Source: Celerinatantimonas sp. MCCC 1A17872 (GTDB lineage Bacteria > Pseudomonadota > Gammaproteobacteria > Enterobacterales > Celerinatantimonadaceae). Taken from it: a DNA stretch of 64,000 bases. The notes beneath the pieces were generated by a model, which made no database searches, was not told the origin of the DNA, and saw only the letters and a list, made by a program, of their open reading frames with translations. Within the stretch, counting starts at the first letter, position 1, and each line of letters starts with the position of its first letter. The translations under genes and the position numbers were made by a program. The DNA lies in contig NZ_JBEQCS010000008.1 in NCBI RefSeq assembly GCF_046054195.1, positions 14,090 to 78,089 on the forward strand, given 5' to 3'. Below are positions 38,869 to 56,228 of this stretch, one piece after another.

Positions 38869-39996
38869 ATGGCAACTGCATTTTTTTCTATTCCAGATAT
38901 CTATTTCGGCGATCATTCGCTTCGCTTCTTAGCCAAACTATCTCAGCATAAAGTCGCTATTGTGACGGATGCTTTTATGGCTTCTTCGGGTAAAACTCAA
39001 GAATTAATTCAAGCAATGCCTGATGCCCGTGTTGCGGTATTTTCTGAGGTGACACCGGACCCGAGTGTTGATGTTTTAAAAGCGGGCGTGAAGCAATTGC
39101 AACATTTTCATCCAGATACAATCATTGCGCTGGGCGGTGGCTCATCACTTGATGCGGCAAAAGGCATCAAAGTGACTCTAGAAGATTATGATCAAAGCCA
39201 GAAAATTGAATTAATTGCGATACCGACAACCAGTGGTTCTGGTTCAGAAGTAACTTCGTATGCGATTATCTCAGACCCTGCAAATGGGCATAAATACCCA
39301 CTCATTTCCAAAGAGTTAGTCCCTGATTGCGCAATTCTCGATCCGCAATTAGTTATGAGTGTGCCAACGCATGTCTCGATGGATACGGGCATGGATGTGT
39401 TAACCCACGCCATTGAAGCCATTGTATCAACCGGTGCTAATGACTTTAGTGATGCACTTGCGCAAAAGGCTATCGCTTTGACCACCATGAATTTACCACT
39501 GATTTTTCAAAACCCACAAGATATCGTTGCGCGTGAACATATGCACAACGCGTCATGCATGGCGGGGATGGCATTTAATAGTGCCGGCCTTGGACTGGTG
39601 CATGCGATGGCCCACGCGATTGGCGGAATGTTACACATTGCCCATGGCCGAGCTAATGCCATGTTATTGGCGTTAGTCATTGAGTTTAATGCCAAAGATA
39701 ACAATGCGAAAACCCTCGCAAATTATCATCGTTGTGCCCAGATGATGGGGATTAAAGAAGACAGTGATACAGCGGCCATTGCTGCAATGGTTCGCATGAT
39801 TCGTTTCTTTAATCAACGCTTTGGTATTGCTAATACCTTGATCGAAATGGGCAAAAATAGCGCTGAGCTTGAAGCGTTGCGCCCATCTATCGTGGCGGCT
39901 GCGCAAAATGACCGCTGCCTTGCTAGCAATCCTCGTTCAGTTGGTGAGAGCGAGCTTAGCGAGTTGTTTAATCGCGTTGCCGGGCTATCTGGATAA
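38869..39996 (+). CDS. Iron-containing alcohol dehydrogenase (EutG/PduQ-like)
   Basis: ALGGGSSLDAAKG NAD motif and an Fe-binding His cluster (HAMAHAIGG). First gene of the BMC operon. Confidence 0.85.
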   Translation: MATAFFSIPDIYFGDHSLRFLAKLSQHKVAIVTDAFMASSGKTQELIQAMPDARVAVFSEVTPDPSVDVLKAGVKQLQHFHPDTIIALGGGSSLDAAKGIKVTLEDYDQSQKIELIAIPTTSGSGSEVTSYAIISDPANGHKYPLISKELVPDCAILDPQLVMSVPTHVSMDTGMDVLTHAIEAIVSTGANDFSDALAQKAIALTTMNLPLIFQNPQDIVAREHMHNASCMAGMAFNSAGLGLVHAMAHAIGGMLHIAHGRANAMLLALVIEFNAKDNNAKTLANYHRCAQMMGIKEDSDTAAIAAMVRMIRFFNQRFGIANTLIEMGKNSAELEALRPSIVAAAQNDRCLASNPRSVGESELSELFNRVAGLSG

Positions 39997-40101
39997 GATT
40001 GTCTTGCGCTTTCAAGCTGGTAAAAAAAGTGCAGCGTAAAGGCAAAAACAATAAATCCAAACCTCATAGTCTAATAGTATCGATTGTTTTGGGGAGCAGT
40101 T

Positions 40102-40794
40102 ATGAATGATGTCCAAGTGCAGGCCGCTCTAATTACCCGGCAAATTATGCAGGAGTTAGTAAAAAAAGAGGCCGTTGCCGTTAACTCTTGTACCCAATTA
40201 TCAACAAAACTTGCGGTTCCTGTTGGAATATCGAATCGGCATGTGCATTTAAGCCGCGAAGATATGGACGTCTTATTTGGCAGTGGCGTTGAGCTAACTC
40301 GTTATAAAGCGGTCAAGCAGCCCGGCCAATATGCAGCTGATCAGACTGTGGTTTTGCGCGGCCCAAAAGGGGAGATTCAACGAGTCCGTATTCTTGGGCC
40401 GTTAAGAAGCGCCACTCAGATAGAGATTTCAATTGCAGATAGCTTCACCTTGGGAGTTAAAGCGCCACTTAGGATGTCTGGAGAGTTAGATAATTCCGCT
40501 GGTATTGAGATAGTGGGGCCTCGGGGCGTGGTGAAAAAAGATCATGGTGCAATCGTTGCCTGGCGACATATCCATATTTCACCTCAGGATGCTGAGCATT
40601 TTCAGCTCAGTGATGGTATGCAAATTGATGTTCAAACCCAAGGTGCTAGAGGCGGAATCTTGCAGCATGTGGTCGTTCGCGTGAGCTCTGATGCGGTGCT
40701 TGAAATGCATCTTGATGTTGAAGAAGCCAATGCACTAGGGCTTAAAAATGGTGATTTAGTTTATGGCTTAAGCAAGGCTTGCTCCCATGGCTAA
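40102..40794 (+). CDS. pduL: Phosphate propanoyl/acetyl-transferase PduL
   Basis: VPVGISNRHVHLS… and a second …AWRHIHISPQD repeat, characteristic of PduL. Confidence 0.85.
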   Translation: MNDVQVQAALITRQIMQELVKKEAVAVNSCTQLSTKLAVPVGISNRHVHLSREDMDVLFGSGVELTRYKAVKQPGQYAADQTVVLRGPKGEIQRVRILGPLRSATQIEISIADSFTLGVKAPLRMSGELDNSAGIEIVGPRGVVKKDHGAIVAWRHIHISPQDAEHFQLSDGMQIDVQTQGARGGILQHVVVRVSSDAVLEMHLDVEEANALGLKNGDLVYGLSKACSHG

Positions 40795-41623
40795 AGCCCA
40801 TACGCGAAGGCTTAAAGAGTTGGCAGCGCTGATGCGCCATCATGCGTGTCATCGTCGCCACGGGCCTTATAAAGTTGGAGTCGATTTAGGAACGGCGAAT
40901 ATTGCGCTAGTCGTGGTTGATTACGCCAATCAACCGGTGACAGGCATTAGTTATCCATCAACGGTTGTGAAAGATGGTGTTGTGGTGGATTACCTAAAAG
41001 CGAGCGAAGTCGTATCTATGCTCAAAGCTCAGTTAGAAGAGCGCCTTGGTGAGCCTTTGAAATATGCTGCCACAGCGATTCCTCCGGGAATTTCCTCAGG
41101 TGACACGAAAGTAATTGTTAACGTAGTTGAAGCGGCTGGATTTACGGTTACCAATGTGATGGATGAGCCAGTTGCAGCAGCAGTTGCCTTAAACATCACC
41201 GATGGTGCCGTCGTAGATGTTGGTGGTGGCACAACTGGGATGAGTGTGTTTTGCAATAACCAAGTTATCTTTAGCGCCGATGAGCCAACTGGCGGCACAC
41301 ATATGACATTGGTCGTTGCTGGCGCTTTGAATCTTCAATACGAGCAAGCAGAAGCGTTAAAAATTGCAAAAGAGAATGAAGCGCAAGTCTTTGAGCTGAT
41401 TCGGCCAGTTGTTGAAAAAATGGCGACGTTAGTTTGTGGATGGCTGGGGCAGTATCCAGTTAAAAAATTATGGCTGGTGGGCGGGGCAAGTAGTTTCTCG
41501 CAGTTTGCCGATGTATTTAGTGGTGTGACGAATGTTCCCAGTGTTGTGGCCCCTGAGCCGCTATTAGTAACGCCATTGGGAATTGCTATCAAGGCAAAAG
41601 AGGTGGCATCTGTTCATTTATGA
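40787..41623 (+). CDS. eutJ: EutJ-like actin-fold ATPase/chaperone
   Basis: KVGVDLGTANIALVVVD… and …DVGGGTTGMSV motifs. 8-bp overlap with pduL. Confidence 0.8.
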   Translation: MAKAHTRRLKELAALMRHHACHRRHGPYKVGVDLGTANIALVVVDYANQPVTGISYPSTVVKDGVVVDYLKASEVVSMLKAQLEERLGEPLKYAATAIPPGISSGDTKVIVNVVEAAGFTVTNVMDEPVAAAVALNITDGAVVDVGGGTTGMSVFCNNQVIFSADEPTGGTHMTLVVAGALNLQYEQAEALKIAKENEAQVFELIRPVVEKMATLVCGWLGQYPVKKLWLVGGASSFSQFADVFSGVTNVPSVVAPEPLLVTPLGIAIKAKEVASVHL

Positions 41624-42309
41624 AAAATCCATCGTTTGAGCACAAACTTGATGCAATGATTTTTGCAATCCTTGAGCAAAAACGCTTAAAAGCCAAGTTG
41701 CTGCGAGTGGTTATCACCGGTTCTGATATGCGCTCATTAGAGCGGATCTTTGCCTGTATCGATGCGTTATATCATCGTGGTTACGCCATTGCGATATCGT
41801 TTTCATATTCAGCTTTTAACTCGATGCTCGCCCAAGTTTGTCAGCGTTGGATAGAGGTGAAAAAGCTTAATATCACAACAGATAACTGTGGCCCTCATTT
41901 ACCAAAAGATGACTATTACGGCGTTTTTTTCCCGGCATTGTCGATGAATAGCTTGGCTAAAATAGCTCAGTGTCTGAATGATAATATTGCCTGTGAATGG
42001 GCATTTGATGCGCTTGCATGCCGGCGCCCTGTCTATGTCACACTCAGCGTCGATGAGGACGAAAGTCATTTTTCCAGCACAATGCGCCAATGCCTGAGCG
42101 ATTACGTCAAAGCTCTTAAAGGCCTTGGGGTACACGTGCTCACCCAAGCTTGCCCAGCGGCTCATAACCGCCGACAGCTAATCACTGTTGCCGACGTTCG
42201 TAAGATGCAAAAGCTGACATCTTTGTCTGTCGAGGCTGATGCGCTAATTACCCCAGCGGCACGGGATGAAATCAATCGTTTACAACTTGTTCTGAATAGA
42301 AAAAGTTAG
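41620..42309 (+). CDS. Hypothetical microcompartment-associated protein, possibly PduM-like
   Basis: Occupies the PduM position (after PduL, before the vertex protein). C-terminal …LITPAARDEINRLQLVL resembles PduM …VVTAMARDAANARNIQLI. Confidence 0.4.
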   Translation: MKNPSFEHKLDAMIFAILEQKRLKAKLLRVVITGSDMRSLERIFACIDALYHRGYAIAISFSYSAFNSMLAQVCQRWIEVKKLNITTDNCGPHLPKDDYYGVFFPALSMNSLAKIAQCLNDNIACEWAFDALACRRPVYVTLSVDEDESHFSSTMRQCLSDYVKALKGLGVHVLTQACPAAHNRRQLITVADVRKMQKLTSLSVEADALITPAARDEINRLQLVLNRKS

Positions 42310-42318
42310 GAGGAACAT

Positions 42319-42591
42319 ATGTATCTGGCCAAAGTGACTGGTGCAATTGTATCAACCACCAAGCATGAATCTTTAATTGGAACCAAGTTATTGGTTGTGA
42401 GCCGCATGGATGCGAATCATCAGATAACTGGCTATCCAGAAATTGCTGTTGATTGCGTTGGTGCGGGCAATGGTGAAGTGGTGATCGTTGCTGTGGGTAG
42501 TTCGGCTCGTAAAAGTCGCGAGCAGGTAAACTCAGTGATTGATGCTGCTGTGGTGGGAATTGTTGACTCTCTCGAAGTGAATGATGATTAG
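42319..42591 (+). CDS. eutN: BMC vertex protein (EutN/PduN/CcmL, BMC-P)
   Basis: 90 aa. MYLAKVTGAIVSTTKHESLIGTKLLVV… is typical of BMC-P. Confidence 0.85.
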   Translation: MYLAKVTGAIVSTTKHESLIGTKLLVVSRMDANHQITGYPEIAVDCVGAGNGEVVIVAVGSSARKSREQVNSVIDAAVVGIVDSLEVNDD

Positions 42592-42624: not shown

Positions 42625-43143
42625 ATGAGCGTCAATCAAACCCGCGAAAGTCGAAGTCTTGATCATCTCATTGATCAGGCAATTGACCAATACGCTTATG
42701 AGCCAGTGACAACGCTAAGCTTAAACGATGCGATGACACTGGGGCGATTGGCCCACGAACAAGCGCATCAAATAGGTGTTGCAATCGTCTTTAGCATGCT
42801 CGATTCAATGGGCTATCAACGTTACTTTTTCAGCATGGATAATGCACTGCTAGTCAGCCACCAATTGGCGTATCGCAAGGCTTGGAGCGCGGTTGCTTTA
42901 AAAATGCCAACGCATGAGCTAGCAAGCCTTTGTCAACCCGGGCAAAGCTTGTATGGGCTGTTGAATCACCCAGATATCTGTTGTGTTGGGGGCGGGCTAC
43001 CTTGTTGGCATAAAGGACAACTGTTAGGTGCAATTGGCATTAGTGGCGGAAGTGTCGAGCAGGATATGTCGGTTGCCAGCAATACTTTGTTTAAATTTAG
43101 CCAGTCTCGTTATTTACTGACGTCGTCACCATTGGCGGTGTAA
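42625..43143 (+). CDS. DUF336 (GlcG / PduO C-terminal-like) haem-binding family protein
   Basis: …GGGLP…GQLLGAIGISGGSVEQD signature. Confidence 0.7.
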   Translation: MSVNQTRESRSLDHLIDQAIDQYAYEPVTTLSLNDAMTLGRLAHEQAHQIGVAIVFSMLDSMGYQRYFFSMDNALLVSHQLAYRKAWSAVALKMPTHELASLCQPGQSLYGLLNHPDICCVGGGLPCWHKGQLLGAIGISGGSVEQDMSVASNTLFKFSQSRYLLTSSPLAV

Positions 43144-43164: not shown

Positions 43165-44373
43165 ATGCCATCATCTGAGCGCGGCATTTTAGTCATTAAT
43201 TGTGGTTCATCATCGCTGAAATTTTCAGTGTTGCCGCAGGATAAGGATACTCCACTTTTTTATGGTATCGCGCAAAAGCTGGGGTTATCCGATGCCGAGA
43301 TCACCTTTCATGATGAGCAAGGACAAACTTGTTGTTACCCACTTAAACGCAGCTCTCACCAATGTGCGTTAGAAACATTGTTTGCCTATATGCGCCAGCA
43401 TTCAATGCTAGGGTCGTTATGTGCGATTGGTCATCGCGTGGCGCATGGCGGGAACCTCTTTAGCCATTCGGTATTGATTAATGATGAAGTGATTGCTCAA
43501 ATCCGAGGGCTTTGTGCGCTTGCTCCGCTGCATAATCCAGCGAATTTAATTGGTATTCGCAGCGCCTTGGAATTATTACCTGATATTCCCCAAGTCGCTG
43601 TATTTGATACCGCTTTTCATCAAACTATCCCCGCCAAAGCATATACTTATGCAATCCCTTTGGAATATCGCGAATTGTATCAGGTGCGCCGATATGGCTT
43701 TCATGGCAGCTCGCATCGCTACATTACCGCAGAAACTATTCATCGGTTGGGGTTAAATCCGGCGCAATGTGGGATTGTGATTGCTCATTTAGGCAATGGC
43801 TCATCGGTTTGTGCGGTAAAAAATGCGCAAAGCGTGGATACCTCGATGGGAATGACGCCGCTCGAAGGCCTAGTCATGGGAACTCGTTGTGGCGACCTAG
43901 ATTGCGGAGTCCTCGCATATTTAGCACGGTGCACTAAACAGTCGATTGAGTCGTTATATGAGTTAATGAACAATCAGTCCGGTTTACTTGGCTTATCTGG
44001 TATATCGAGTGATTTTCGCGCTTTACAAAGCGAAAGACTATCGGGAAACCCCCAAGCAACACTTGCCATCGATGTCATGATCCATCGTCTGGCGCGTCAT
44101 ATTGGGGGGCATATGGCTTCGTTAGAGCATTTGGATGCATTAGTGTTTACCGGTGGAATCGGTGAAAATTCGCCGCTGGTTCGAGAGTTGACCGTTAAAA
44201 GTCTGGCGGTTTTTGGTTTTCGTTTGGATGAGCGGCAAAATAACGCAATGTGCTGCGGTGAAAGCGGCATTATTTCGCAACCTAACACCCCTGTGGTAAT
44301 GGTTATTCCAACCAATGAAGAAAAAATGATAGCCAAAGATGCAGCCGATATTGCACAGGGTATTGCATTGTAA
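43165..44373 (+). CDS. Acetate/propionate kinase (AckA/PduW family)
   Basis: ILVINCGSSSLKF and the phosphate-binding motif FHGSSHRY. Confidence 0.85.
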   Translation: MPSSERGILVINCGSSSLKFSVLPQDKDTPLFYGIAQKLGLSDAEITFHDEQGQTCCYPLKRSSHQCALETLFAYMRQHSMLGSLCAIGHRVAHGGNLFSHSVLINDEVIAQIRGLCALAPLHNPANLIGIRSALELLPDIPQVAVFDTAFHQTIPAKAYTYAIPLEYRELYQVRRYGFHGSSHRYITAETIHRLGLNPAQCGIVIAHLGNGSSVCAVKNAQSVDTSMGMTPLEGLVMGTRCGDLDCGVLAYLARCTKQSIESLYELMNNQSGLLGLSGISSDFRALQSERLSGNPQATLAIDVMIHRLARHIGGHMASLEHLDALVFTGGIGENSPLVRELTVKSLAVFGFRLDERQNNAMCCGESGIISQPNTPVVMVIPTNEEKMIAKDAADIAQGIAL

Positions 44374-44729
44374 TTATTAGCTCTACCAAGGCATTTATGT
44401 GGGTTATCTTATCCATTTCATCGCTATTTATATCTGCTGTTTTTAGTTTTTATCCCCCTCGTTGGCAGCGTCTGCGTTCGCTTGTTTTCTCTTTTGAATA
44501 AACCTGCAATTTATTGCATCTATCTAAGCGATGACCGCAAAAGAATCCCCCTAGGGGGCAAAACATTTTTCGGTAATCTTCATATGATGAAGATGCTAGG
44601 GAGGGTTGATCTTTGGTAGTTGCAAAACTAATCACAAAAGGTCCACTCCTCTAGTTAAAACGCATCAAGGTGAGCCGGGAGCGCTTAAGCCTTTTTGCTT
44701 TAATTATCATCGAAATTGCCGAGGTAGAT

Positions 44730-45011
44730 ATGCAACAAGAAGCATTAGGTATGGTTGAAACAAAAGGGTTGGTTTCTGCCATTGAAGCCGCCGATACCAT
44801 GGTTAAGTCTGCCAATGTGACACTGGTTGGTTACGAAAAAATTGGTTCAGGATTAGTCACTGTTATGGTCCGCGGTGATGTCGGAGCGGTAAAAGCTGCC
44901 ACCGATGCAGGATCCTCTGCTGCGGCGAAAGTTGGCGAATTGGTTTCTGTCCACGTCATTCCTCGTCCACATGTCGAAGTCGAAAAAATTCTACCCAAAA
45001 CGCTTGAGTAA
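44730..45011 (+). CDS. BMC-H shell protein (PduA/EutM-like)
   Basis: [35 protein letters not shown] 6 nt upstream of the ATG. Confidence 0.85.
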
Positions 45012-45026
45012 TCCATTTAGAGGGGC

Positions 45027-45818
45027 GTGACAATGAAAGAGAATCTTGTTGAGCAGATTATTTCTGAGGTAATGAATAATCAAAGTCATGTCGGTGAGCC
45101 AAGCCAAACTACGAAAAGCGGCCCATGTGGGTTAACTGAGTTTGTGGGTAGTTCTGAACTTGGTCATACCATCGGTTTAGTGATAGCAAGCGTCGATAGC
45201 CAGCTGCACGAAGTGATGAATATCGATACTAAATATCGCTCCATCGGTATTTTGGGCGCTCGCACAGGTGCCGGCCCACACATTTTTGCAGCCGATGAAG
45301 CGGTTAAAGCCACGAACAGTGAAATTGTCGCCATTGAGCTGTGCCGAGACACTGAAGGTGGTGGCGGCCATGGCTCTTTAATTATCTTTGGCGCTGAAGA
45401 CGTATCAGATGTGCGCCGCGCGGTGGAAGTTGCTCTGTCCGAGCTCAAACGCACTATGGGCGATGTTTATGGCTCACCCGCTGGCCATTTGGAATTTCAA
45501 TACACAGCTCGGGCCAGCTATGCGCTTAATAAAGCGTTTGGTGCGCCAATTGGCCGCTCATTCGGTATGACTTGTGCCGCTCCTGCCGCTATTGGGGTTG
45601 TGATCGCAGATACTGCTGCCAAAGCTGCGGTAATTGAGCCTGTTGCCTATTCGAGCCCGCAAAAGGGAACTTGTTTTAGCAACGAAGCCATATTTACTTT
45701 TGCGGGGGATTCTGGCGCCGTTCGCCAGGCCATTGTAGCGGCTCGAGAAGTTGGGTTGCAGTTACTCTCAACGATGGACTCAGCGCCAATTAAATCAACG
45801 ACAACTCCATATATTTAA
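45027..45818 (+). CDS. pduB: Tandem-BMC-domain shell protein (PduB-like, BMC-T)
   Basis: 263 aa with two permuted BMC domains and a GGGG loop, PduB-like. Confidence 0.75.
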   Translation: MTMKENLVEQIISEVMNNQSHVGEPSQTTKSGPCGLTEFVGSSELGHTIGLVIASVDSQLHEVMNIDTKYRSIGILGARTGAGPHIFAADEAVKATNSEIVAIELCRDTEGGGGHGSLIIFGAEDVSDVRRAVEVALSELKRTMGDVYGSPAGHLEFQYTARASYALNKAFGAPIGRSFGMTCAAPAAIGVVIADTAAKAAVIEPVAYSSPQKGTCFSNEAIFTFAGDSGAVRQAIVAAREVGLQLLSTMDSAPIKSTTTPYI

Positions 45819-45855: not shown

Positions 45856-47376
45856 ATGGCTAGTATGAATGATACTGAAATTACTCAGGCGGTCGCGCAT
45901 GTTTTGAGTAAATATACCCAAACAAACCCGCCTGAAGAGCATACCTGTCAGAGCGAAAATTCAAGCTTTGAGTTGGATAGAATCGTTGCTAAGGCTTTGG
46001 CCGAGAAGTTTTCAACCGCTGCCGTTGAGCCGCTATCTGCTCCAACGATTGACTCTCATGCAGGTGTCTTTGCAGCGATGGATGAAGCAATTGGTGCAGC
46101 TTTACAGGCTCAGATCCAATATCGGCATTGTTCAATGCGTGATAGAGAAAGCTTTATCAGTGGGATCCGCAGCATTTTTATTCAGGAGTCAATTCTTGAA
46201 AAAATTTCGCGGATGACAGTCGATGAAACAGGCATGGGCAATTACGATGATAAATTGATTAAAAATCGAATTGCTGCCACTAAAACCCCTGGTACCGAAG
46301 ATCTCACAACGTTTGCGTTATCTGGTGATGATGGCCTTTCATTGATGGAATATTCGGCTTATGGGGTGATTGGCTCGATTACCCCAACCACCAATCCAAC
46401 CGAAACCATTATCAACAATACTATTGGCATGTTGGCTGCTGGAAATACCGTGGTATTTAGCCCACATCCGCGCTCAACCAAAGTATCGCTCTATACCATC
46501 GATTTAATTAACCGCAAACTTGCTGAGCTTGGCGCACCTAACAACTTAGTTGTCACAGTTGCCAAGCCATCGATTGAGAATACCAATGCGTTAATGAATG
46601 ACCCGCGGGTCAACATGCTGGTTGCAACGGGTGGGCCTTCGATAGTGCGCGCCATTATGTCGACCGGGAAAAAGGCAATTGGTGCTGGAGCCGGGAACCC
46701 GCCTGTGGTCGTGGATGAAACGGCCAATGTGGAAAAAGCCGCTCAAGACATCATCAACGGCTGTGCCTTTGATAATAATCTGCCGTGCATCGCCGAAAAA
46801 GAGCTGATTGTCGTTAATGAAGTGGCTGACTATTTGATTCATTGCATGAAAAAATGCGGCGGTTATTTATTGTGCGATCCCAAATTAGCTCATCAGCTGC
46901 AGAATCTGGTCATCAATGCCAAAGGCACTGGCCCTAAAACTGAGTTTGTCGGTAAGAACGCCCGTTATCTTTTGGAACAGTTGGGAATTGACGCGCCAGC
47001 TGACATAAAAGTGATTCTCATTGAAACAGAACGAGACGACCCATTTGTTGTGAATGAGTTGATGATGCCGATTTTGCCAATTGTGCGCGTGGGCAACGTC
47101 GATGAAGCGATTGATTTGGCAGTAAAAGTTGAGCATGGCAACCGTCATACCGCGATGATGCATTCGATGAATGTAGAAAAATTAACCAAAATGGCCCGTT
47201 TAATCCAGACCACTATTTTTGTCAAAAATGGGCCATCGTATGCCGGAATTGGTGTGGGTGGCGAAGGCCATACCACCTTTACGATTGCAGGCCCTACCGG
47301 TGAAGGGCTGACTTCGGCCCGCTCGTTTGCCCGGCATCGGCGCTGCGTGATGGTCGAAGCGTTGAATGTTCGCTAG
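45856..47376 (+). CDS. CoA-acylating aldehyde dehydrogenase (EutE/PduP-like)
   Basis: 506 aa. ALDH fold with a catalytic Cys region (…NNLPCIAEKE…) and an N-terminal ~40-aa extension that may act as an encapsulation peptide. Confidence 0.85.
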   Translation: MASMNDTEITQAVAHVLSKYTQTNPPEEHTCQSENSSFELDRIVAKALAEKFSTAAVEPLSAPTIDSHAGVFAAMDEAIGAALQAQIQYRHCSMRDRESFISGIRSIFIQESILEKISRMTVDETGMGNYDDKLIKNRIAATKTPGTEDLTTFALSGDDGLSLMEYSAYGVIGSITPTTNPTETIINNTIGMLAAGNTVVFSPHPRSTKVSLYTIDLINRKLAELGAPNNLVVTVAKPSIENTNALMNDPRVNMLVATGGPSIVRAIMSTGKKAIGAGAGNPPVVVDETANVEKAAQDIINGCAFDNNLPCIAEKELIVVNEVADYLIHCMKKCGGYLLCDPKLAHQLQNLVINAKGTGPKTEFVGKNARYLLEQLGIDAPADIKVILIETERDDPFVVNELMMPILPIVRVGNVDEAIDLAVKVEHGNRHTAMMHSMNVEKLTKMARLIQTTIFVKNGPSYAGIGVGGEGHTTFTIAGPTGEGLTSARSFARHRRCVMVEALNVR

Positions 47377-47399: not shown

Positions 47400-47699
47400 A
47401 TGAAAGTTCGAATTATCAATGCGCCAGGGGCCGATGTTTTAGCCATGCTAAAACGGCGAATTTCACCCGAGCTAAGACAAAGCATCGATTTGGTCTGCAC
47501 CGATGCAATTGGGTTAGTGCTATTGCCGATTCCTGATCTGTATTTTTATGCAGATAAAGTCAGCAAAAGGGCCAATGTCACAGTCACTGAGATCTGTGGA
47601 ACTTGTCCTCAGCATGTCACCACCCTTGGCATTTTTGGCGAGCTTTCCGCAGTAAGAGACGCGGTTCAAGTGATAGAGGAGGACTCAGAGAGTTTCTGA
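47400..47699 (+). CDS. Permuted BMC-domain shell protein (EutS/PduU-like)
   Basis: ~100 aa. The pattern …IDLVCTDAIGLVLL…ANVTVTEI…GIFGELSAV fits a permuted BMC fold. Confidence 0.55.
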   Translation: MKVRIINAPGADVLAMLKRRISPELRQSIDLVCTDAIGLVLLPIPDLYFYADKVSKRANVTVTEICGTCPQHVTTLGIFGELSAVRDAVQVIEEDSESF

Positions 47700-48362: not shown

Positions 48363-50912
48363 ATGTTAGAGAAAGGTTTTTCTAATCCGACCGATCGTGT
48401 TGTAAGACTCAAAACCATGATTCTGCAAGCTAAACCTTATGTAGAATCCGAACGAGCCGTGCTAGCAACCGAGGCCCATAAAGAGAATCAACATTTGCCT
48501 GCTGTTATGCGCCGGGCAAAAATGGTTGAAAAAATATTCAATGAATTGCCGGTGACTATTCGCCCTGATGAGCTGATTGTTGGGTCGGTAACCAAGCATC
48601 CGCGTTCGACTGAAATCTGCCCTGAGTTTTCATTCGATTGGGTAGAAAAAGAGTTCGAGACGATGGCTTCGCGAATGGCTGACCCATTTATTATTGAAAA
48701 ACAAACCGCTCAGCAATTACATGATGCATTTTTGTATTGGCCGGGTAAAACCACCAGTGAGCTGGCTTCGTCATATATGTCCCAGTCAACGCATGACAGT
48801 ATGGATAATGGCGTCTTTACGGTGGGTAACTACTATTTTGGCGGTGTTGGGCATGTTTGTGTCGATTATGGCAAAATTCTGAAAATTGGTTTTCAAGGAA
48901 TTATCGACGAAGTCACAAGTGCGCTGGAAAATTTAGACAGAACTAAACCTGATTACATTAAAAAAGAACAGTTCTACCATGCAGTATTGATTAGCTATCA
49001 AGCTGCGATTAATTATGCGCATCGTTATGCCGACGAAGCGGCGCGACTTGCTCAGCAAGAGCATAATCCGCAGCGAAAACAAGAACTCCAGCAGATCTCC
49101 AAAAACTGTCGCAGAGTCCCTGAATTTGGCGCAACTACCTTCTGGGAAGCCTGCCAAACATTCTGGTTTTTGCAAAGTATGTTGCAAATCGAATCCAGTG
49201 GCCATTCCATTTCACCGGGACGTTTTGACCAGTACATGTATCCATATTTAGCGGGCGATCATGCAATATCTGATGAGTTTGCCCAAGAGCTGGTGGATTG
49301 CTGCTGGATAAAACTCAACGATATCAATAAAACGCGTGATGAGGTCTCAGCTCAAGCATTTGCCGGTTACGCAGTGTTTCAAAATTTATGTGTTGGTGGC
49401 CAAAATGAACAAGGTTTAGATGCAACCAACCGTTTGAGTTATATGTGTATGGAAGCCTGCGCTCACGTTAGTTTGCCGCAGCCGTCATTTTCTATTCGAG
49501 TTTGGCAAGGCACGCCAGATGAATTTTTGTTCCGAGCTTCAGAAGTGGTTCGCTTAGGGCTCGGTGTGCCAGCGATGTATAACGATGAGGTGATTATTCC
49601 AGCGCTGCAAAACCGTGGTGTGTCACTTAAAGATGCTCGAAATTATTGCATTATTGGCTGCGTTGAACCGCAATGCCCGAATAAAACAGAAGGTTGGCAC
49701 GATGCAGCATTCTTTAATGTGGCAAAAGTGCTCGAAATTACCCTGCACAATGGCCGGGTTGGCAATAAACAGCTAGGGCCAGTGACGGGTGAAATGACCC
49801 AATGGCATAGTATCGAAGACTTTTATAGCGCATTTGAAAAACAGATGGCGCATTTTGTCCATAACTTGGTTGAAGCGTGTAATAGCGTCGATATGGCACA
49901 TGCCGAACGCTGTCCTCTGCCATTTTTATCCGCCATGGTTGATGATTGCATTGGTCGAGGAAAATCTTTGCAAGAGGGCGGTGCTATCTATAACTTCACG
50001 GGCCCGCAAGCTTTCGGGATTGCCGACAGTGGCGACTCTGTTTACGCAATGCAAAAACACGTGTTCGATGAAGGAAAAATCTCGCTTGAAGAGCTAAAAG
50101 GCGCATTGGATGCAAACTTTGGCCATGGGGTCGGTGAGAAAGTTGCAAGTAATACATCAAACTCTTATGCCGAACAAGATGTCTATGCCGTGGTTAAACG
50201 AATTATCGATCAAAATAGTTCGTTATCTCCGGCGGCAATTAAAGACGAGGTCTATCGTCAGTTAAATACAGTTTCTAACTCTGCGGTTGTGAGCACTGGC
50301 AATCTGTCTCGCTATGAAGAGCTACGCCATCTTTTGGAAAATACCCCGTGTTTTGGCAACGATATTGATGATGTTGACTACGTTGCTCGTCGGTGTGCTC
50401 TGGTTTATTGCAAAGAAGTTGAAAAATATACAAATCCTCGTGGCGGCCAGTTCCAGGCCGGTATTTATCCGGTGTCGGCTAATGTGCTCTTTGGTAAAGA
50501 TGTTGCCGCTTTACCTGATGGACGATTGGCAAAAGAGCCGCTCGCCGATGGGGTTTCACCTCGTCAGGGTAAAGATACCCAAGGGCCAACCGCTGCTGCT
50601 AACTCAGTGGCGAAACTTGATCACTTTATCGCATCAAATGGCACGCTATATAACCAGAAGTTTTTGCCATCAGCCTTAAAAGGTGAAAATGGTATTCGTA
50701 ACTTTAGTGGTTTGGTTCGCAGTTACTTTGATAAAAAAGGGATGCATGTGCAATTTAATGTGGTCGACAGAGACACCCTTATTGAGGCACAAAAACATCC
50801 TCAGGAGCATCAGGATTTAGTGGTTCGAGTGGCGGGGTATAGTGCGCAATTTATTGTACTGGCTAAAGAAGTTCAGGACGATATTATCAGCCGAACTGAG
50901 CAGCATTTTTAA
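48363..50912 (+). CDS. Glycyl radical enzyme of the PFL-like family. The dehydratase/lyase subclass could be 1,2-propanediol dehydratase or choline TMA-lyase; undetermined.
   Basis: 849 aa. Glycyl-radical motif VRVAGYSAQF near the C-terminus and catalytic Cys-x-Glu (IIGCVEP). Confidence 0.9.
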   Translation: MLEKGFSNPTDRVVRLKTMILQAKPYVESERAVLATEAHKENQHLPAVMRRAKMVEKIFNELPVTIRPDELIVGSVTKHPRSTEICPEFSFDWVEKEFETMASRMADPFIIEKQTAQQLHDAFLYWPGKTTSELASSYMSQSTHDSMDNGVFTVGNYYFGGVGHVCVDYGKILKIGFQGIIDEVTSALENLDRTKPDYIKKEQFYHAVLISYQAAINYAHRYADEAARLAQQEHNPQRKQELQQISKNCRRVPEFGATTFWEACQTFWFLQSMLQIESSGHSISPGRFDQYMYPYLAGDHAISDEFAQELVDCCWIKLNDINKTRDEVSAQAFAGYAVFQNLCVGGQNEQGLDATNRLSYMCMEACAHVSLPQPSFSIRVWQGTPDEFLFRASEVVRLGLGVPAMYNDEVIIPALQNRGVSLKDARNYCIIGCVEPQCPNKTEGWHDAAFFNVAKVLEITLHNGRVGNKQLGPVTGEMTQWHSIEDFYSAFEKQMAHFVHNLVEACNSVDMAHAERCPLPFLSAMVDDCIGRGKSLQEGGAIYNFTGPQAFGIADSGDSVYAMQKHVFDEGKISLEELKGALDANFGHGVGEKVASNTSNSYAEQDVYAVVKRIIDQNSSLSPAAIKDEVYRQLNTVSNSAVVSTGNLSRYEELRHLLENTPCFGNDIDDVDYVARRCALVYCKEVEKYTNPRGGQFQAGIYPVSANVLFGKDVAALPDGRLAKEPLADGVSPRQGKDTQGPTAAANSVAKLDHFIASNGTLYNQKFLPSALKGENGIRNFSGLVRSYFDKKGMHVQFNVVDRDTLIEAQKHPQEHQDLVVRVAGYSAQFIVLAKEVQDDIISRTEQHF

Positions 50913-50975
50913 ATCGCATCGAACAGGCCGTTCGATGAGCGGCCTGCAGTCTTTTCAAGATTAAAGAGCAGTGCT

Positions 50976-51896
50976 ATGAATAACGACGTTGATTATAATG
51001 CGCAGGGTGTTCTTTTTAATATTCAGCGATATTCGCTCCATGATGGTCCGGGGATCCGCACGATTCCTTTTTTTAAAGGTTGTCCACTTTCATGTAAATG
51101 GTGCAGCAATCCAGAGTCTCAGAATCCACATCCAGAAATCGTTTATAACCAGATAAGTTGTGTGCATTGTGGTAAATGTCTCGCAGCTTGTCCTGAGCAT
51201 GCAATTGCTCTGAGTAATCCATTTTTCATTGACCGGGATAAATGTATTAACTGTGGTCATTGTGCGGATGTTTGCCCAACTGGGGCGCTTGAGATCAAAG
51301 GTAAAACGATGTCGGTTGAGCAGGTGTTGCTTGAGCTTAAAAAAGAGGAAAATCTGTTTCGACGATCTGGTGGTGGTGTGACACTCTCCGGGGGTGAACC
51401 GCTCCAGCAACCGGTATTTGCTCGAGAACTACTCAAAGGGTGTAAAGAAAAAGGCTGGCATACGGCGATGGAAACCACTGGATGTGCGCCCAAAGAGGTG
51501 ATTGAAGATGTGTTTCCATGGGTTGATTTGGCATTAACTGATATTAAAGCGCTGAATCCCAAGATTCATAGAGAAAATACCGGTGTGGACAACACGCTGA
51601 TTTTAGAGAATTTGATGCGTATTTCGTTTATCACGAAAGTAGTGGTGCGGATCCCGGTGATTCCTGGTGTAAACGATAATCCAGATGAAATTCGCGCAAT
51701 TGGGGAATTTGCCAGATTACTCTCCAATGTGGATACCATTCATCTATTGCCTTATCACACCTATGGCCAAAATAAATATTCTCTGCTGGGGCGAATTTAT
51801 CCCATGGGAGATACACCTGTTATGGCCGATGAACAAGTTGAGCCTTTACGTGACGTGATAGAATCACTTGGCTTTCAGTGTCACATTGGTGGCTAG
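50976..51896 (+). CDS. Glycyl-radical-enzyme activating enzyme (radical SAM)
   Basis: CPLSCKWC radical-SAM cluster motif plus two ferredoxin-like Cx2Cx2Cx3C motifs. Confidence 0.9.
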   Translation: MNNDVDYNAQGVLFNIQRYSLHDGPGIRTIPFFKGCPLSCKWCSNPESQNPHPEIVYNQISCVHCGKCLAACPEHAIALSNPFFIDRDKCINCGHCADVCPTGALEIKGKTMSVEQVLLELKKEENLFRRSGGGVTLSGGEPLQQPVFARELLKGCKEKGWHTAMETTGCAPKEVIEDVFPWVDLALTDIKALNPKIHRENTGVDNTLILENLMRISFITKVVVRIPVIPGVNDNPDEIRAIGEFARLLSNVDTIHLLPYHTYGQNKYSLLGRIYPMGDTPVMADEQVEPLRDVIESLGFQCHIGG

Positions 51897-51921: not shown

Positions 51922-51956
51922 AAGCCATACATTGATTTGTGTGGCTTTATTTTTAT
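51922..51956. terminator. Hairpin terminator between the convergent activase and BMC-H genes
   Basis: AAGCCATACA-ttgattt-TGTGTGGCTT followed by TATTTTTAT. Confidence 0.5.
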
Positions 51957-51980: not shown

Positions 51981-52547
51981 TTATTGGCCACTTTTGTCGG
52001 AGTCTGCTTTGGGAGCTGCTTTTTTAGTCGTTTTTCGTGGGGCTCGTCGGGTTCTCGTTGTCGCAGTTTTACTGGTAGGTTTGGTGGCTGGTTTAACAGG
52101 CGTTGATTCTGGCCGTTGTATTAAAGCTGTCGTTTGGTGAGGGGCATTAAGCGTGCTCTGCGTTGGTTTTTTATCTGATGTCGCAACTTGTTTTAAGCTT
52201 TTTGATGCTTCAGTGTCATTGGGCGCAGGTGTTTTTTGGGTAGTCGGTGCAGGTGGCGCTTTAACCGTTTCGGCAGTATTTATCAGAGCATCTAGTCCGT
52301 TGGCCGTGCGTGCAATCACGCGATGCGCCCAGACTTTTCCCATTCGGTTGGCGGCAGCTACGCCAGAGGCAACCGCGGCGTTAATTGCGCCGACATCACC
52401 TTCGAGTTTTACTGTGACCAAGCCATTGCCTTTGGTTAGCTCATAGCCGATTAGTGTGACATTGGCTGATTTTACAGCAGCATCAGCAGCCTCTATCGCG
52501 GCGGTTAAGCCAACGGTTTCGATTAAACCTAAACTATGGTTAGACAT
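51981..52547 (-). CDS. BMC-H shell protein with a ~100-aa Lys/Thr/Pro-rich disordered C-terminal tail
   Basis: The N-terminal 90 aa form a canonical BMC domain (LGLIETVGLTAAIEAADAAVKSANV). The tail is low-complexity (…KPTQSTLNAPHQTT…TRRAPRKTTKKAAPK…). AGGAGA RBS. Confidence 0.8.
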   Translation of the reverse strand: MSNHSLGLIETVGLTAAIEAADAAVKSANVTLIGYELTKGNGLVTVKLEGDVGAINAAVASGVAAANRMGKVWAHRVIARTANGLDALINTAETVKAPPAPTTQKTPAPNDTEASKSLKQVATSDKKPTQSTLNAPHQTTALIQRPESTPVKPATKPTSKTATTRTRRAPRKTTKKAAPKADSDKSGQ

Positions 52548-52576
52548 ACTGTTCTCCTAATCGAATTTTCATGATG

Positions 52577-53743
52577 TTATGCCGCGCAGTTTGCTCGATG
52601 AGCGTCTTCTCGTAATTGCTCCGCTTTATCTATTTTTTCCCAGGGGAAGATATTGCGACCAAAATGGCCGTAGCAAGCTGTTTTTCGATAACGCGGAGTG
52701 AGTAAATCCAAGTGTTGGATAATTTGATAAACACTTAGCTCAAAATGTTCTTGGATTAAGCCGAGTATTTTTTCTTTGGCAATGGTTTCGCTACCAAATG
52801 TTTGAATATCTATAGAAATTGGGGCAGGGACCCCAATGGCCCAAGCCAGCTGAATTTCACATTGTGATGCAAGCCCTGCGGCGACAATATTTTTAGCGAT
52901 ATAGCGGGCGACATACGCGCCAGAGCGGTCCACTTTGGATGGGTCTTTACCTGAAAAAGCGCCACCTCCGTGGTGAGCAGCACCACCATAGGTATCAACA
53001 ATAATTTTTCTGCCTGTTAGTCCACAATCGGCGGCGGGGCCCCCGATGACAAATGGTCCGGCTGGATTAACGAGCAGTTGTGTATCATGTTTTAGCCATG
53101 CGTTTGGCAATACTGGTTTAATAATCTCTTCAATCACCGCTTCTTGTAACTGTTTTTGGCTGATATCGATGTGGTGCTGAGTGGATAGCACGACTGTTTG
53201 AGCTTGTATTACGTGGCGCTGGTTAAATCGCAAACTCACCTGAGACTTAGCATCAGGCAATAGAAAATCTAGCGTATGACTTTTACGAACGAAGGCATGT
53301 CGCTGCATTAATCGATGAGCAAACAGCAGTGCCGCAGGCATATATTCGGGCGTTTCATCGCAGGCATATCCATAGGTGATGCCTTGATCGCCAGCCCCTT
53401 GTTCTTGATTATCTTTGGCTCGAATAGCATCGCTGATATTCAATGACTGTTGGCCAAGTAAGTTAATCAGCCGGCAATGTTTGGCATCGAATCCTTTGTC
53501 GGCACTGTCATAACCTATCTCTTCGATGGTGCGATGGACAACTTGCTCAATATCAAATGTGGCCGATGAGCTAATTTCACCGGCTAAAACGATAGCATCA
53601 GATTTTAGAAGGCATTCACAGGCAACTTTTGCGCTTGGATCGCGAAGCAAAAAGCCATCTAGAATGGCATCACTGATTTGATCTGCCATTTTATCTGGAT
53701 GTCCTTCACCGACTGATTCTGATGTGAACAGATGACTATCCAT
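52577..53743 (-). CDS. metK: S-adenosylmethionine synthetase, divergent paralog
   Basis: MetK motifs LFTSESVGEGHPDK, GAGDQG and …GGGAFSGKDPSKVDRS. Only ~50% identical to E. coli MetK by eye. Confidence 0.85.
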   Translation of the reverse strand: MDSHLFTSESVGEGHPDKMADQISDAILDGFLLRDPSAKVACECLLKSDAIVLAGEISSSATFDIEQVVHRTIEEIGYDSADKGFDAKHCRLINLLGQQSLNISDAIRAKDNQEQGAGDQGITYGYACDETPEYMPAALLFAHRLMQRHAFVRKSHTLDFLLPDAKSQVSLRFNQRHVIQAQTVVLSTQHHIDISQKQLQEAVIEEIIKPVLPNAWLKHDTQLLVNPAGPFVIGGPAADCGLTGRKIIVDTYGGAAHHGGGAFSGKDPSKVDRSGAYVARYIAKNIVAAGLASQCEIQLAWAIGVPAPISIDIQTFGSETIAKEKILGLIQEHFELSVYQIIQHLDLLTPRYRKTACYGHFGRNIFPWEKIDKAEQLREDAHRANCAA

Positions 53744-53895: not shown

Positions 53896-54948
53896 TCAAA
53901 GTGTATCCACTTGCATACGCCGATACTCGGATGGCGCTTCGCCTGTTTCTTTTTTAAAGATACGACAAAAATAATTCGAGTCTTGCCATGATAACTCCAG
54001 CGCAATGGCGTTGATTTTTAATTCACTAAAGATAAGCAGTGAGCGAGCAATTGCTATTTTTCGCCCTGTGACATAATTAGAAAAACCGACACCGGTATGT
54101 TTCTTAAAGGCTCGACTGAGATAACAGGAGCTAACATACGATTTTTCGGCAATGCTATCTAATGTGACGTTAGTGAGAATATCATGCTCAATGTGAAATT
54201 TCGCGCGGCGTAAAAAATCCATATTATTACTCATGTTTTTAAAGGCGTGAGTAAATAATTTTTGAGATATTTTCATGAGTTGAAAAATTAACTGAGAATA
54301 GATGAGCTTATTTAAACTACTTTGGTGTACCTTTTGAGAAAGCATATTTAAGCTGTCTAATTCAACCTGATAGTTATCATCGGCTGATTCTAAATAAAGG
54401 TGAATAGTATCTAATAGCGTTAAAATAGCGCATTTAGCGGTTTGCAGCTCTTGATGAGAATCTAAGAATGCCTGATTGATATGGTTAAATATGAAGTCAT
54501 GCCAGAGCGGATAATCGCAGCTTTCAAGCATTTTGTTTAAGTCTTTTTTCAGCGTGCGAGTTGCGGCTATATCGTTATCATTGCAGCCGAGATTTTTTTT
54601 GATTGTTTCGACTAATGTTGTTTTTTTGACCGGTTTAAGCAGATAGTCCTCTACTTTAAGATTGATCATGGCGCGCAGCAGATCGAAGTCGTCATTCGCG
54701 GTGGTCACGATAACTTTGGTATCTCGGTTTTTAGCTTTGAGGTATTCAATCACCTCTTTACCATTGGGTAACGGGATATTGATATCAACAAACATCATGT
54801 CGATCTGTGTTAGTTTATCAATCAGATCAATTGCTTTTCGGCCTGTTGATGCTTCATGAAGAACCGCATTATCCACACATTCTGAAATGATCCGATGCAA
54901 AGATTCAAGTTCAATAGGCTCATCTTCAACAACAATAATATTGTACAT
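53896..54948 (-). CDS. Response regulator with CheY receiver and AraC-type HTH (YesN-like)
   Basis: Receiver (…MMFVDINIPLPNGKEV…) and a C-terminal AraC HTH (…SYVSSCYLSRAFKKHTGV…). Confidence 0.8.
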   Translation of the reverse strand: MYNIIVVEDEPIELESLHRIISECVDNAVLHEASTGRKAIDLIDKLTQIDMMFVDINIPLPNGKEVIEYLKAKNRDTKVIVTTANDDFDLLRAMINLKVEDYLLKPVKKTTLVETIKKNLGCNDNDIAATRTLKKDLNKMLESCDYPLWHDFIFNHINQAFLDSHQELQTAKCAILTLLDTIHLYLESADDNYQVELDSLNMLSQKVHQSSLNKLIYSQLIFQLMKISQKLFTHAFKNMSNNMDFLRRAKFHIEHDILTNVTLDSIAEKSYVSSCYLSRAFKKHTGVGFSNYVTGRKIAIARSLLIFSELKINAIALELSWQDSNYFCRIFKKETGEAPSEYRRMQVDTL

Positions 54949-54980
54949 AATGTATCTCGCTACATGTTGTTCATCTAAAT

Positions 54981-56228
54981 TTATTGTTTGTACTGGATTG
55001 GAAATGTCAGTGTAATAGTCGTGCCACCCATTGGTTTAAATGGGCTAGCAATTTCCAATTTTGATTGCTCTCCAAATAAAAGTTGTAAACGGTTAATGAT
55101 ATTATTAATGCCAATCCCTCCTTTTTGGCGGTTTTGGTTCCCGGAAAGAATGTGTTCAATATCGTCAGGTGATATGCCATTGCCATTATCTGATAGGGTA
55201 ATAATGACATTTTCACCATCATCTTTAGCATAGATATCTAATTGGCTTTTTGTTTCTCTTGGTTCGACAACATAATTAAAGAAATTTTCTACTAAAGGCT
55301 GCATAATTAAAAATGGGCAGATAATTTCTAGATATTTTGGGGCAATGTCACAGGTGTAATCAAATCTATCTCCCATTCTTACTTTTTGGATAGACATATA
55401 ATTTTGCACATATTTTACTTCGTGGCCTAAAGTAATTAAGCCGCGGCTATTTTTACGCAATAAATAACGCATCATATCTGAAAATTCATGCACCATGGTT
55501 TCGGTGCGTTGGGCATCTTCAAGATAAGCCAAGCGGCCAATCGTATTGAGGACATTAAATAAAAAATGAGGATTCACCTGATACGACAATGCTTTAAATT
55601 CAGCCTCATGAAGGGAGCGTTCGATTTCCATGCGTTTACGCAGTTCATCGGTTAATTCAAGCTCTTTTTGGTGGAGTTCACGTTGAATTGTATTGGTGTA
55701 TGCTTGCTCAACCAGATAAGAAACTAGATTAAACAGTGCATAAGAGATAGCCGAAAAGCGCTCATAAGGCATGGTTTGAATCGTCGAATCTTGAGATACA
55801 TTGAGTTGCAACTCATCGCGCAGATGGTTTTGCTCAAGAATATACTCAATAGCCTGCTCGTTGTCTTTCTCAACGTGGACCTGGCCTGAGATAAATGCGC
55901 CCAGATAGTGGCCATTAATCATAATCGGTACGGCACATTCGATGAATCCGCAATCACAGCGATAGACAACCGGTTTTTGTGCTTTCATCGCGGCCCTTCC
56001 GCCAGCATCATCGTTGTCGTAACAAATTTTGGCAAGTTCAGGGTTATTGCGAAAGTGAATGCATCTAGCGCAAAAGCCACTGGGGTGGGTTACCGGTACG
56101 CCATTCTCATCAACAATCACAAGCGCAACCATCATGGACTTACTGAAGTTATCTTGTAAGGTTTGCAGGCGTGCGACATCGATATATTCAGTAAGTTTAT
56201 AATGAGAAGCCATGATGGATACCTTCAA
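54981..56228 (-). CDS. Cytoplasmic sensor histidine kinase with an N-terminal PocR-like domain (YesM/LytS-type)
   Basis: No TM segment. N-terminal Cys-rich PocR-like region. [13 protein letters not shown]-box and a HATPase_c domain. Confidence 0.75.

Follow-up and report, generated by a model that had tools for sequence, protein, structure and literature searches.

Which substrate is fermented by the glycyl-radical-enzyme microcompartment (GRM) encoded at positions 38869-56228 of a 64,000-nucleotide window from Celerinatantimonas sp. MCCC 1A17872 (contig NZ_JBEQCS010000008.1)? An initial annotation, made from the letters alone, had described a complete locus of this kind with a PocR-type two-component system, had proposed either a choline trimethylamine-lyase or a 1,2-propanediol dehydratase as its signature enzyme, with a lean towards propanediol, and had left the substrate open. 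The comparisons presented here indicate that the locus is very probably a GRM3 (Grp-type) microcompartment fermenting 1,2-propanediol without vitamin B12, and that it is an ordinary member of a known system, already studied both genetically and structurally. The B12-independent propanediol organelle previously described in uropathogenic Escherichia coli, Raoultella and purple bacteria would also be present, complete, in a marine Celerinatantimonas, which extends its known hosts by one lineage and has little import beyond annotation.

A Pfam profile search of the locus proteins bore out the completeness of the locus: all 18 genes, including the PocR-type two-component system, were recovered in the order and orientation first described, and every domain call of the initial annotation was reproduced (E-values 1e-7 to 1e-241). 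Fourteen genes lie on the plus strand (38869-51896, 13.0 kb) and four on the minus strand (51981-56228), the two units converging on a gap of 85 bp. The glycyl radical enzyme (PF02901 and PF01228) and its radical S-adenosylmethionine (SAM) activase adjoin genes for three BMC-H-type, one BMC-T and one BMC-P shell proteins (BMC domain matches 1e-7 to 1e-31), all of them inside the locus; no further BMC-domain genes were found in the rest of the window. The catalytic motifs of the dehydratase, the activase, the aldehyde dehydrogenase and the DJ-1 protein are intact.

The signature enzyme (grpM, 48363..50912, plus strand, 849 aa; PFL-like 5e-241, Gly_radical 1e-37) is already named 'glycyl radical diol dehydratase GrpM' by NCBI. 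It carries the motifs GCVEP (Cys433, Glu435) and RVAGYSAQF (Gly825), confirming a Cys-x-Glu eliminase and not an enzyme of the Cys-Cys type of pyruvate formate-lyase. When all solved structures were searched, the best match was the GRM3 1,2-propanediol dehydratase of Raoultella planticola (PDB 9RCO-9RCR, 1565 bits), with near-identity to 9RCO in both aligned blocks; the glycerol dehydratase of Clostridium butyricum scored 1062 bits, the propanediol dehydratase of Roseburia inulinivorans 954 bits, choline trimethylamine-lyases (CutC) 474-504 bits and pyruvate formate-lyase 121 bits. All of the active-site residues checked were identical in the R. planticola enzyme, and GrpM residues H164, S282, F339, C433, E435, H446, D447, A448, Y702 and V704 were those of both solved propanediol dehydratases. 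In the pocket region the glycerol dehydratase has Tyr339, Ser448 and Ser642, whereas GrpM has Phe339, Ala448 and Val704 and agrees in the alignment with both propanediol dehydratases at these three positions. From the work on the Roseburia structure, Tyr339 and Ser642 of the glycerol dehydratase reportedly contact the third hydroxyl of glycerol. Since no published residue tables separating propanediol from glycerol dehydratases were found in the literature searched, the diagnostic positions were derived by aligning GrpM with the three enzymes of known structure.

Assays and structures of relatives pointed in the same direction. In the paper on 9RCO-9RCR, 1,2-propanediol was bound in the R. planticola enzyme's active site, and the Rhodopseudomonas palustris GRM3 enzyme (75% identical to that of R. 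planticola), reconstituted with its activase and aldehyde dehydrogenase, turned over 1,2-propanediol but did not convert glycerol (PMC5311937). On account of the match to these GRM3 enzymes of known structure or activity, of the diagnostic residues and of a colinear grp locus in E. coli, 1,2-propanediol as the predicted substrate of GrpM can be regarded as largely settled. The earlier lean towards propanediol was thus supported, and the view that the sequence alone leaves the substrate undecided was given up. GrpM also contains an internal insertion of about 60 aa (approximately 588-648), absent from the glycerol dehydratase, with two amphipathic helices (DVYAVVKRIID, moment 0.67; EVYRQLNTVSN, 0.61); the crystallised R. 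planticola chain, in turn, lacks a stretch of about 55 residues found at 592-646 of the window enzyme. An internal insertion of this kind has been described as an intramolecular encapsulation peptide in GRM3-5 enzymes (PMC5311937 among the sources), and that of GrpM is a putative peptide of the same sort.

Gene content assigned the locus to GRM3. The ancillary set given for this type by Axen et al. 2014 consists of acetate kinase, peptidase, flavoprotein, EutJ, SAM synthetase, a two-component pair and DUF336, and all seven are present in the locus; an accessory set that had been called unusual is therefore that of a known type, with counterparts in E. coli grpC, D, F, G, L, P, Q and R. The same authors reported PocR-domain regulators in GRM3, with alpha- and gammaproteobacteria as hosts. 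The metabolosome core is present (CoA-acylating aldehyde dehydrogenase, PduL phosphotransacylase and Fe-dependent alcohol dehydrogenase), as is a ferredoxin-like insertion with extra Fe-S motifs in the activase, a reported feature of GRM activases other than those of GRM5. The best solved relatives of the grpK and grpJ products were GrpU (4OLP) and a GRM3 aldehyde dehydrogenase (5JFL/5JFN), respectively, and a predicted GrpU, in a locus devoid of PduS/PduT, is in keeping with what has been reported for the 'GRM3b' subgroup. Two names were revised: what had been called 'PduM-like' is the flavoprotein of GRM3 (PF02441, 30.8 bits; the PduM model, E=4e-4, stayed below its cut-off), and the 'EutS-like' protein is GrpU (match to 4OLP, E=1.7e-36). 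The GRM4 type of Shewanella was recognised by a PduF-like MIP and a PduK-like BMC-H together with the absence of GrpU; the window has no MIP, GrpU is present in the locus, and the tail of the tailed BMC-H has no cysteine motif. A classification against the GRM types, as had been suggested, accordingly found the gene content of GRM3 and not that of GRM4 or GRM5, and a signature enzyme other than the CutC of GRM1/2.

The closest studied counterpart is the grp locus of E. coli. A sensitive DNA search detected the dehydratase gene, annotated grpM, in 539 of 5426 complete E. coli genomes at 73% nucleotide identity, and these genomes gave no match when the entire locus was run by megablast. In the annotated locus of E. 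coli L73, the plus-strand unit encodes a PduQ-like alcohol dehydrogenase, PduL, EutJ, a flavoprotein, GrpE, a GlcG/HbpS protein and GrpG-GrpO, and the convergent unit a BMC protein, GrpR, a response regulator and GrpP. The same 18 genes occur there in the same order and orientation, with 57-94% protein identity (34% for the flavoprotein), and both have a long non-coding stretch in front of grpH that contains the conserved block. The E. coli set grpA-grpS counts 19 genes, of which the window has 18; colinearity is not full, only the permease gene grpO (301 aa) being absent. As cited in two reports (PMC11724981, PMC13450708), the grp locus of strain CFT073 encodes a compartment that metabolises 1,2-propanediol and forms anaerobically, its induction by 1,2-propanediol is blocked by deletion of grpP or grpQ, and GrpP and GrpQ are a phosphotransfer pair.

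Beyond E. coli, the locus was colinear with nine other Enterobacterales loci, and the same order was seen in Atlantibacter, Raoultella, Buttiauxella, Klebsiella, Serratia, Pectobacterium and Acerihabitans. One further contig (L084, from a second strain or a metagenome) was 97.4% identical over 16.9 kb, with the same intact arrangement and the same upstream neighbour. The closest named relative was a grp-like locus of Vibrio salinus, with the same gene order and gene lengths. The GRM3 loci of R. palustris BisB18 and Rhodobacter capsulatus share with the window a dehydratase with the insertion (72-74% identical), the aldehyde dehydrogenase extension, PduL, a GrpU-like protein, DJ-1 and DUF336, but these alphaproteobacterial loci are reordered, with the dehydratase first and the activase last, and in most of them MetK and the response regulator were not found when 10-kb flanks were searched. 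The Salmonella Pdu system has in common with the window the substrate, aldehyde dehydrogenase, PduL, PduQ-type alcohol dehydrogenase, kinase, PduB- and EutN-type shell proteins and PocR-domain sensing; it relies on the B12-dependent PduCDE with a reactivase and cobalamin recycling, whereas the window encodes a glycyl radical enzyme, an activase and a SAM synthetase, and the PocR domain sits on an AraC regulator in Salmonella and on a histidine kinase in the window. Database labels of close dehydratase homologues varied: one, 81% identical, is recorded at NCBI as '4-hydroxyphenylacetate decarboxylase large subunit [Campylobacter jejuni]', and others as 'formate C-acetyltransferase' or 'cobalamin-independent glycerol dehydratase'. 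Such labels are probably mis-annotations, the C. jejuni case probably coming from a contaminated assembly.

Several points weigh against a 1,2-propanediol compartment of the Grp type. The flavoprotein GrpD is the most divergent product of the locus (34% identical to the E. coli protein). Of the 14 closest relatives examined, 12 have a permease (grpO) or MIP channel gene behind that for the activase, at the place where the window has an 85-bp gap, and with neither gene in the locus the uptake of 1,2-propanediol is left unexplained except by passive diffusion. Finally, the R. planticola enzyme also binds ethylene glycol, so that 1,2-propanediol may not be the sole physiological substrate.

The last of these points leads to the proposal that ethylene glycol is the main substrate in the marine host, being converted through acetaldehyde to acetyl-CoA, a scheme compatible with a GRM3 locus. 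Ethylene glycol was bound in the R. planticola GRM3 crystal and protected the enzyme down to 1.5 mM; no turnover data were found in the literature searched, the E. coli regulator homologue is reported to respond to 1,2-propanediol (PMC11724981), and the R. palustris aldehyde dehydrogenase prefers propionaldehyde (PMC5311937). Ethylene glycol as the main substrate was consequently judged improbable.

The empty slot after the activase could instead mark a cryptic or decaying locus, the loss of the transporter being a sign of disuse. The slot holds a 301-aa GrpO-type permease in six relatives and a 275-aa MIP channel with NPA motifs in six others, among them Raoultella ornithinolytica; it holds no transporter gene in the window, the 97%-identical contig, Budvicia and a Neisseriaceae metagenome-assembled genome, and no grpO homologue was found anywhere in the 64-kb window (best tblastn E=6.9). 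Against decay, none of the 18 genes is truncated and their catalytic motifs are intact, the 97.4%-identical contig keeps the intact arrangement, and the Budvicia and Neisseriaceae loci likewise do without a transporter; there is little probability of it. Because transporter content varies among the relatives, grpO is unlikely to be a defining feature of Grp loci, and the interchange of permease, MIP channel or nothing in this position suggests that cells can do without a dedicated uptake system. 1,2-Propanediol is a small molecule that passes through membranes. In V. salinus, which has a MIP channel gene upstream of the alcohol dehydrogenase gene and divergent from it, the slot was occupied by a ParE/Phd toxin-antitoxin pair and a fragment of an integrase, a 231-aa gene of the phage-integrase family (L082, 13616-15091). 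As its contents differ between hosts, the slot looks like a hot spot of insertion and exchange.

A shell-enclosed B12-independent glycerol dehydratase, which would turn glycerol into 3-hydroxypropionaldehyde, is suggested by the C. butyricum enzyme being the second-best solved match, above the Roseburia propanediol dehydratase, and by the glycerol dehydratase names of some close homologues. The window enzyme differs from DhaB1/DhaB2 in Phe339 and Val704 and in its insertion, and its gene stands among shell genes, whereas the glycerol dehydratase has Tyr339, Ser448 and Ser642 in the alignments and, according to PMC5311937, lacks the internal insertion and is not tied to a microcompartment. No product was obtained from glycerol with the R. 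palustris GRM3 enzyme (PMC5311937), and with the R. planticola enzyme the effect of glycerol was very weak and seen at 1.5 M. Glycerol as the substrate is very improbable.

The fucose/rhamnose type towards which the initial annotation had pointed (GRM5), in which a deoxy-sugar phosphate is cleaved and reduced to propanediol within the same organelle, has a signature enzyme of the same functional class, and the Roseburia GRM5 enzyme shares the insertion and active-site residues with GrpM. However, a scan of the locus, of about 14 kb upstream and of about 8 kb downstream found no class II aldolase, Zn-type alcohol dehydrogenase (lactaldehyde reductase), PduS/PduT or DeoR regulator, the ferredoxin insertion missing from GRM5 activases is present in the window activase, and identity to the GRM5 enzyme is about 52-55%; this type is highly improbable here, and the earlier suggestion was abandoned. 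The choline half of the original alternative, a GRM1/GRM2 compartment built around CutC, has next to no likelihood: CutC belongs to the same superfamily and shares the Cys-x-Glu motif, but GrpM scored 561 bits with the CutC equivalog model TIGR04394 (cut-off 1050), it has no N-terminal CutC-type extension, and in the recommended CutC alignment, which covered the Asp216/Thr502 choline pocket, the trimethylammonium-binding Asp is replaced by His164 and the Thr-Ser after the Cys loop by His446-Asp447, leaving the Phe (GrpM Phe339, CutC Phe395) as the only one of the choline-pocket residues checked that is common to both.

With 1,2-propanediol preferred as the substrate, the analogy with the studied relatives suggests how the locus would work; induction, encapsulation, the supply of SAM by MetK and the roles of GrpU, the flavoprotein, DUF336 and DJ-1 are inferred in this way. 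1,2-Propanediol would reach the cytoplasm, the locus itself having no channel or permease gene, and would be sensed under anoxia by the soluble PocR-domain kinase, which would phosphorylate the REC-AraC regulator; this in turn would activate one promoter ahead of grpA and another ahead of the shell genes. The shell would be assembled from the plain and the tailed BMC-H, the Fe-S protein GrpU, the PduB-type trimer and the EutN-type pentamer. The dehydratase may enter it by means of the internal two-helix insertion, with the activase riding on the dehydratase, and the aldehyde dehydrogenase and PduL by means of N-terminal helices. Cleavage of SAM, provided by the MetK paralogue of the locus, would allow the activase to place a radical on Gly825, from where it would move to Cys433 and abstract a hydrogen from C1 of the diol, while Glu435, His164 and Asp447 would aid the loss of the C2 hydroxyl to yield propionaldehyde. 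Within the shell, the aldehyde dehydrogenase would form propionyl-CoA and NADH, the Fe-dependent alcohol dehydrogenase would form 1-propanol and regenerate NAD+, and PduL would form propionyl-phosphate and regenerate CoA, the kinase then yielding propionate and ATP. Electrons may reach the activase through GrpU or the flavoprotein; their delivery is considered an open question in the field (PMC6325248).

Two non-coding blocks may be the targets of this regulation. The region upstream of grpA contains a single stretch alignable across nine loci, a promoter-like block at 38720..38776 (plus strand; TGTATTTTTTTGTC ... GGCAATATTTTC ... TGTACAA), which is bipartite like the block preceding grpH. The latter lies in the 356-bp gap between the kinase gene and the shell genes (44504..44588, plus strand; ATTTATTGC ... 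GGCAAAACATTTT ... TATGAT) and consists of columns invariant across the nine loci, the rest of the spacer not being alignable. We infer that both blocks are activator-dependent promoters with candidate response-regulator sites; conserved across genera, they are candidate operator sites for a GrpQ-type regulator. A scan for the sigma-70 consensus returned 10 matches, compared with 36 in shuffled sequence, and none on the plus strand before grpA or grpH, a result that is consistent with activator-dependent promoters and proves nothing. A GrpQ footprint has been reported on fimS of uropathogenic E. coli; its likeness to the blocks is loose (CAAACA, CTTTTTG) and was not counted as support. No riboswitch or other RNA family was detected in the locus with Rfam.

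Members of Celerinatantimonas are facultatively anaerobic diazotrophs associated with marine plants. Among the best 120 homologues of the dehydratase there was none from another Celerinatantimonas, the closest named one being that of V. salinus (87%), although the housekeeping GcvP, of which a fragment encoded at 39-2213 of the window is 100% identical to that of Celerinatantimonas sp. MCCC 1A17872, matched C. yamalensis and another Celerinatantimonas at 79-82%; this difference suggests that the locus was acquired laterally. Composition did not mark such an event as recent: G+C is 45.0% in the locus and 40.9% in the rest of the window, but at third positions the locus genes, with a G+C of 0.37-0.47, match most of the flanking genes that were sampled (0.37-0.43; one had 0.27), and recent horizontal transfer as a conclusion from G+C was dropped. 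A plasmid origin was also rejected, the sole match being a pdu-like stretch of 1.2 kb at 73% identity on a Rahnella plasmid. The E. coli copy is island-like, flanked at one end by a tyrosine recombinase and at the other by IS1, a Fic fragment, YfjI and an inovirus Gp2-family gene (L73; L081 1-29 and 20206-24543), whereas the copy in the window has no adjoining mobile-element genes and third-position G+C as in its flanks. A combined scenario, in which a laterally acquired, transporter-less Grp locus serves in anoxic sediment on 1,2-propanediol or ethylene glycol from fucose- and rhamnose-rich algal or plant polymers and its PocR system also controls genes outside the locus, is rather doubtful as a whole. 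GrpP and GrpQ have been reported to control fimbriae in uropathogenic E. coli, and no paper linking Celerinatantimonas to microcompartments or propanediol was found in the literature searched.

The gene calls were refined before the remaining parts were compared. In the mechanical list of open reading frames (ORFs), seven starts had been placed too far upstream; the refined positions are 40102 (PduL), 44730 (BMC-H), 45033 (PduB), 45865 (aldehyde dehydrogenase), 47400 (GrpU), 47708 (DJ-1) and 56213 (histidine kinase), each preceded by a Shine-Dalgarno-like sequence. Products from 45865, 47400, 47708 and 56213 are exact NCBI protein records, and six of the seven starts give the lengths called on contig L084, which ends inside the seventh, the histidine kinase gene. 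Ten locus proteins are exact NCBI records of Celerinatantimonas sp. MCCC 1A17872, placed on a contig of 194 kb in a strain whose taxid now corresponds to Celerinatantimonas sediminis (family Celerinatantimonadaceae).

The plus-strand unit begins with grpA (38869..39996), for a PduQ-like Fe-dependent alcohol dehydrogenase (1-propanol dehydrogenase; PF00465 and PF25137, Fe-ADH 1e-43 to 1e-48) that is 62% identical to the product of the E. coli gene annotated 1-propanol dehydrogenase PduQ. It is followed by the gene for a PduL-type phosphate propanoyltransferase (40102..40794; PF06130, PTAC/PduL, 2e-72; 230 aa, as on L084), whose amphipathic N-terminal helix ITRQIMQELVK (hydrophobic moment 0.62) is a probable encapsulation peptide. 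Next come grpC (40787..41623), for a EutJ-like protein of the actin/Hsp70 fold (MreB/FtsA/HSP70 family matches; 65% identical to eutJ of the E. coli grp locus); grpD (41620..42309), the flavoprotein gene discussed above, also named 'flavoprotein' by NCBI; grpE (42319..42591), for the BMC-P vertex pentamer (EutN/CcmL; PF03319, 3e-28; 72% identical to E. coli GrpE); grpF (42625..43143), for the DUF336 or GlcG-HbpS family protein (PF03928, 4e-30), a GRM3 ancillary gene; and grpG (43165..44373), for the acetate/propionate kinase (PF00871, 9e-145; 63% identical to E. coli propionate kinase GrpG).

After the long gap, still on the plus strand, grpH (44730..45011) encodes the major BMC-H shell hexamer (PF00936, 7e-31; 94% identical to E. 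coli GrpH; 93 aa, as on L084) and grpI (45033..45818) the PduB-type tandem-BMC shell trimer (BMC-T), with two BMC stretches and 79% identity to E. coli GrpI. The product of grpJ (45865..47376; Aldedh 2e-30; 503 aa, exact NCBI record) is the CoA-acylating propionaldehyde dehydrogenase; among solved structures the R. palustris GRM3 enzyme comes closest (5JFL/5JFN, 687 bits), and the two share the catalytic Cys and the His-Thr pair in the alignment. The N-terminal extension of the grpJ product, about 60 aa long, has amphipathic helices (ELDRIVAKALA, moment 0.57). The 99-aa product of grpK (47400..47699), a permuted BMC-H, matched PDB 4OLP (Pectobacterium wasabiae 'GrpU microcompartment shell protein') over its full length and has the pore motif GTCPQH, which conforms to the G-X-C-P-Q-N/H of GrpU (PMC6325248); it is the predicted Fe-S shell protein GrpU. 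The DJ-1/PfpI family protein of grpL (47708..48316; PF01965, 3e-38; TIGR01382, 152 bits; exact NCBI record) retains the Cys-His nucleophile elbow AICHG. Between the dehydratase and activase genes, a pattern scan located a GC-rich hairpin (50924..50946, plus strand; 10 bp, 7 of them G-C) directly 3' of the dehydratase stop and 30 nt before the activase start; that it might set the enzyme to activase ratio is speculation. The activase gene grpN (50976..51896; TIGR02494, 379 bits; Radical_SAM and two Fer4 matches) encodes the CX3CX2C motif (CPLSCKWC) and the ferredoxin-type CVHCGKCLAACP and CINCGHCADVCP, two CX2CX2CX3CP motifs of a two-cluster ferredoxin-like insertion.

In the convergent gap, where relatives have the transporter gene, a hairpin followed by a T-run (51922..51947, no strand assigned) is a probable bidirectional terminator. 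On the minus strand, the BMC-H gene at 51981..52547 (PF00936, 3e-24 over residues 5-80) encodes about 100 aa of C-terminal tail, which has many Pro, Thr and Lys residues and a basic end; in E. coli and other relatives, tailed homologues are found at this same place. The remaining three genes are grpR (52577..53743), for a SAM synthetase paralogue with three MetK domains (66% identical to E. coli GrpR); a grpQ-like response regulator gene (53896..54948; REC PF00072 and AraC-type helix-turn-helix PF00165 and PF12833; 57% identical to the E. coli protein); and a grpP-like sensor histidine kinase gene (54981..56213; PocR 7e-41, His_kinase and HATPase; 410 aa, exact NCBI record; 69% identical to E. 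coli GrpP). No transmembrane segment was detected in the kinase (maximum 19-residue Kyte-Doolittle mean 1.35), and its sensing is therefore taken to be cytoplasmic.

Other features of the window were recorded outside the locus. Three ORFs without any Pfam match flank it, one of 341 aa upstream (36773-37798, minus strand) and two of 203 and 311 aa downstream (57194-58941, plus strand). Within 25 kb upstream there are two genes for methyl-accepting chemotaxis proteins (16281-18311, minus strand; 25151-27067, plus strand), whose ligand domains had no Pfam match. Three plus-strand genes at 8542-12360, for a pyridoxal-phosphate-dependent decarboxylase, a 484-aa protein without Pfam match and an MFS transporter, look like a small biosynthesis or export cluster. 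An RNA-repair cassette at 29271-35453 comprises the sigma-54 activator RtcR, an SPFH/Band7 protein, RtcB ligase, an RlaP-family nucleotidyltransferase and an RNase T-like exonuclease, and an RtcA cyclase was not encountered in the scanned ORFs. Between rtcR (29271-30875, minus strand) and the Band7/SPFH gene (31424-32578, plus strand), in the divergent promoter region of this RtcR-controlled operon, lies a tRNA-Cys(GCA) gene (31186-31257, plus strand; ARAGORN; Rfam tRNA, 49.9 bits), which may be either a real tRNA or an Rtc-linked tRNA-like module.

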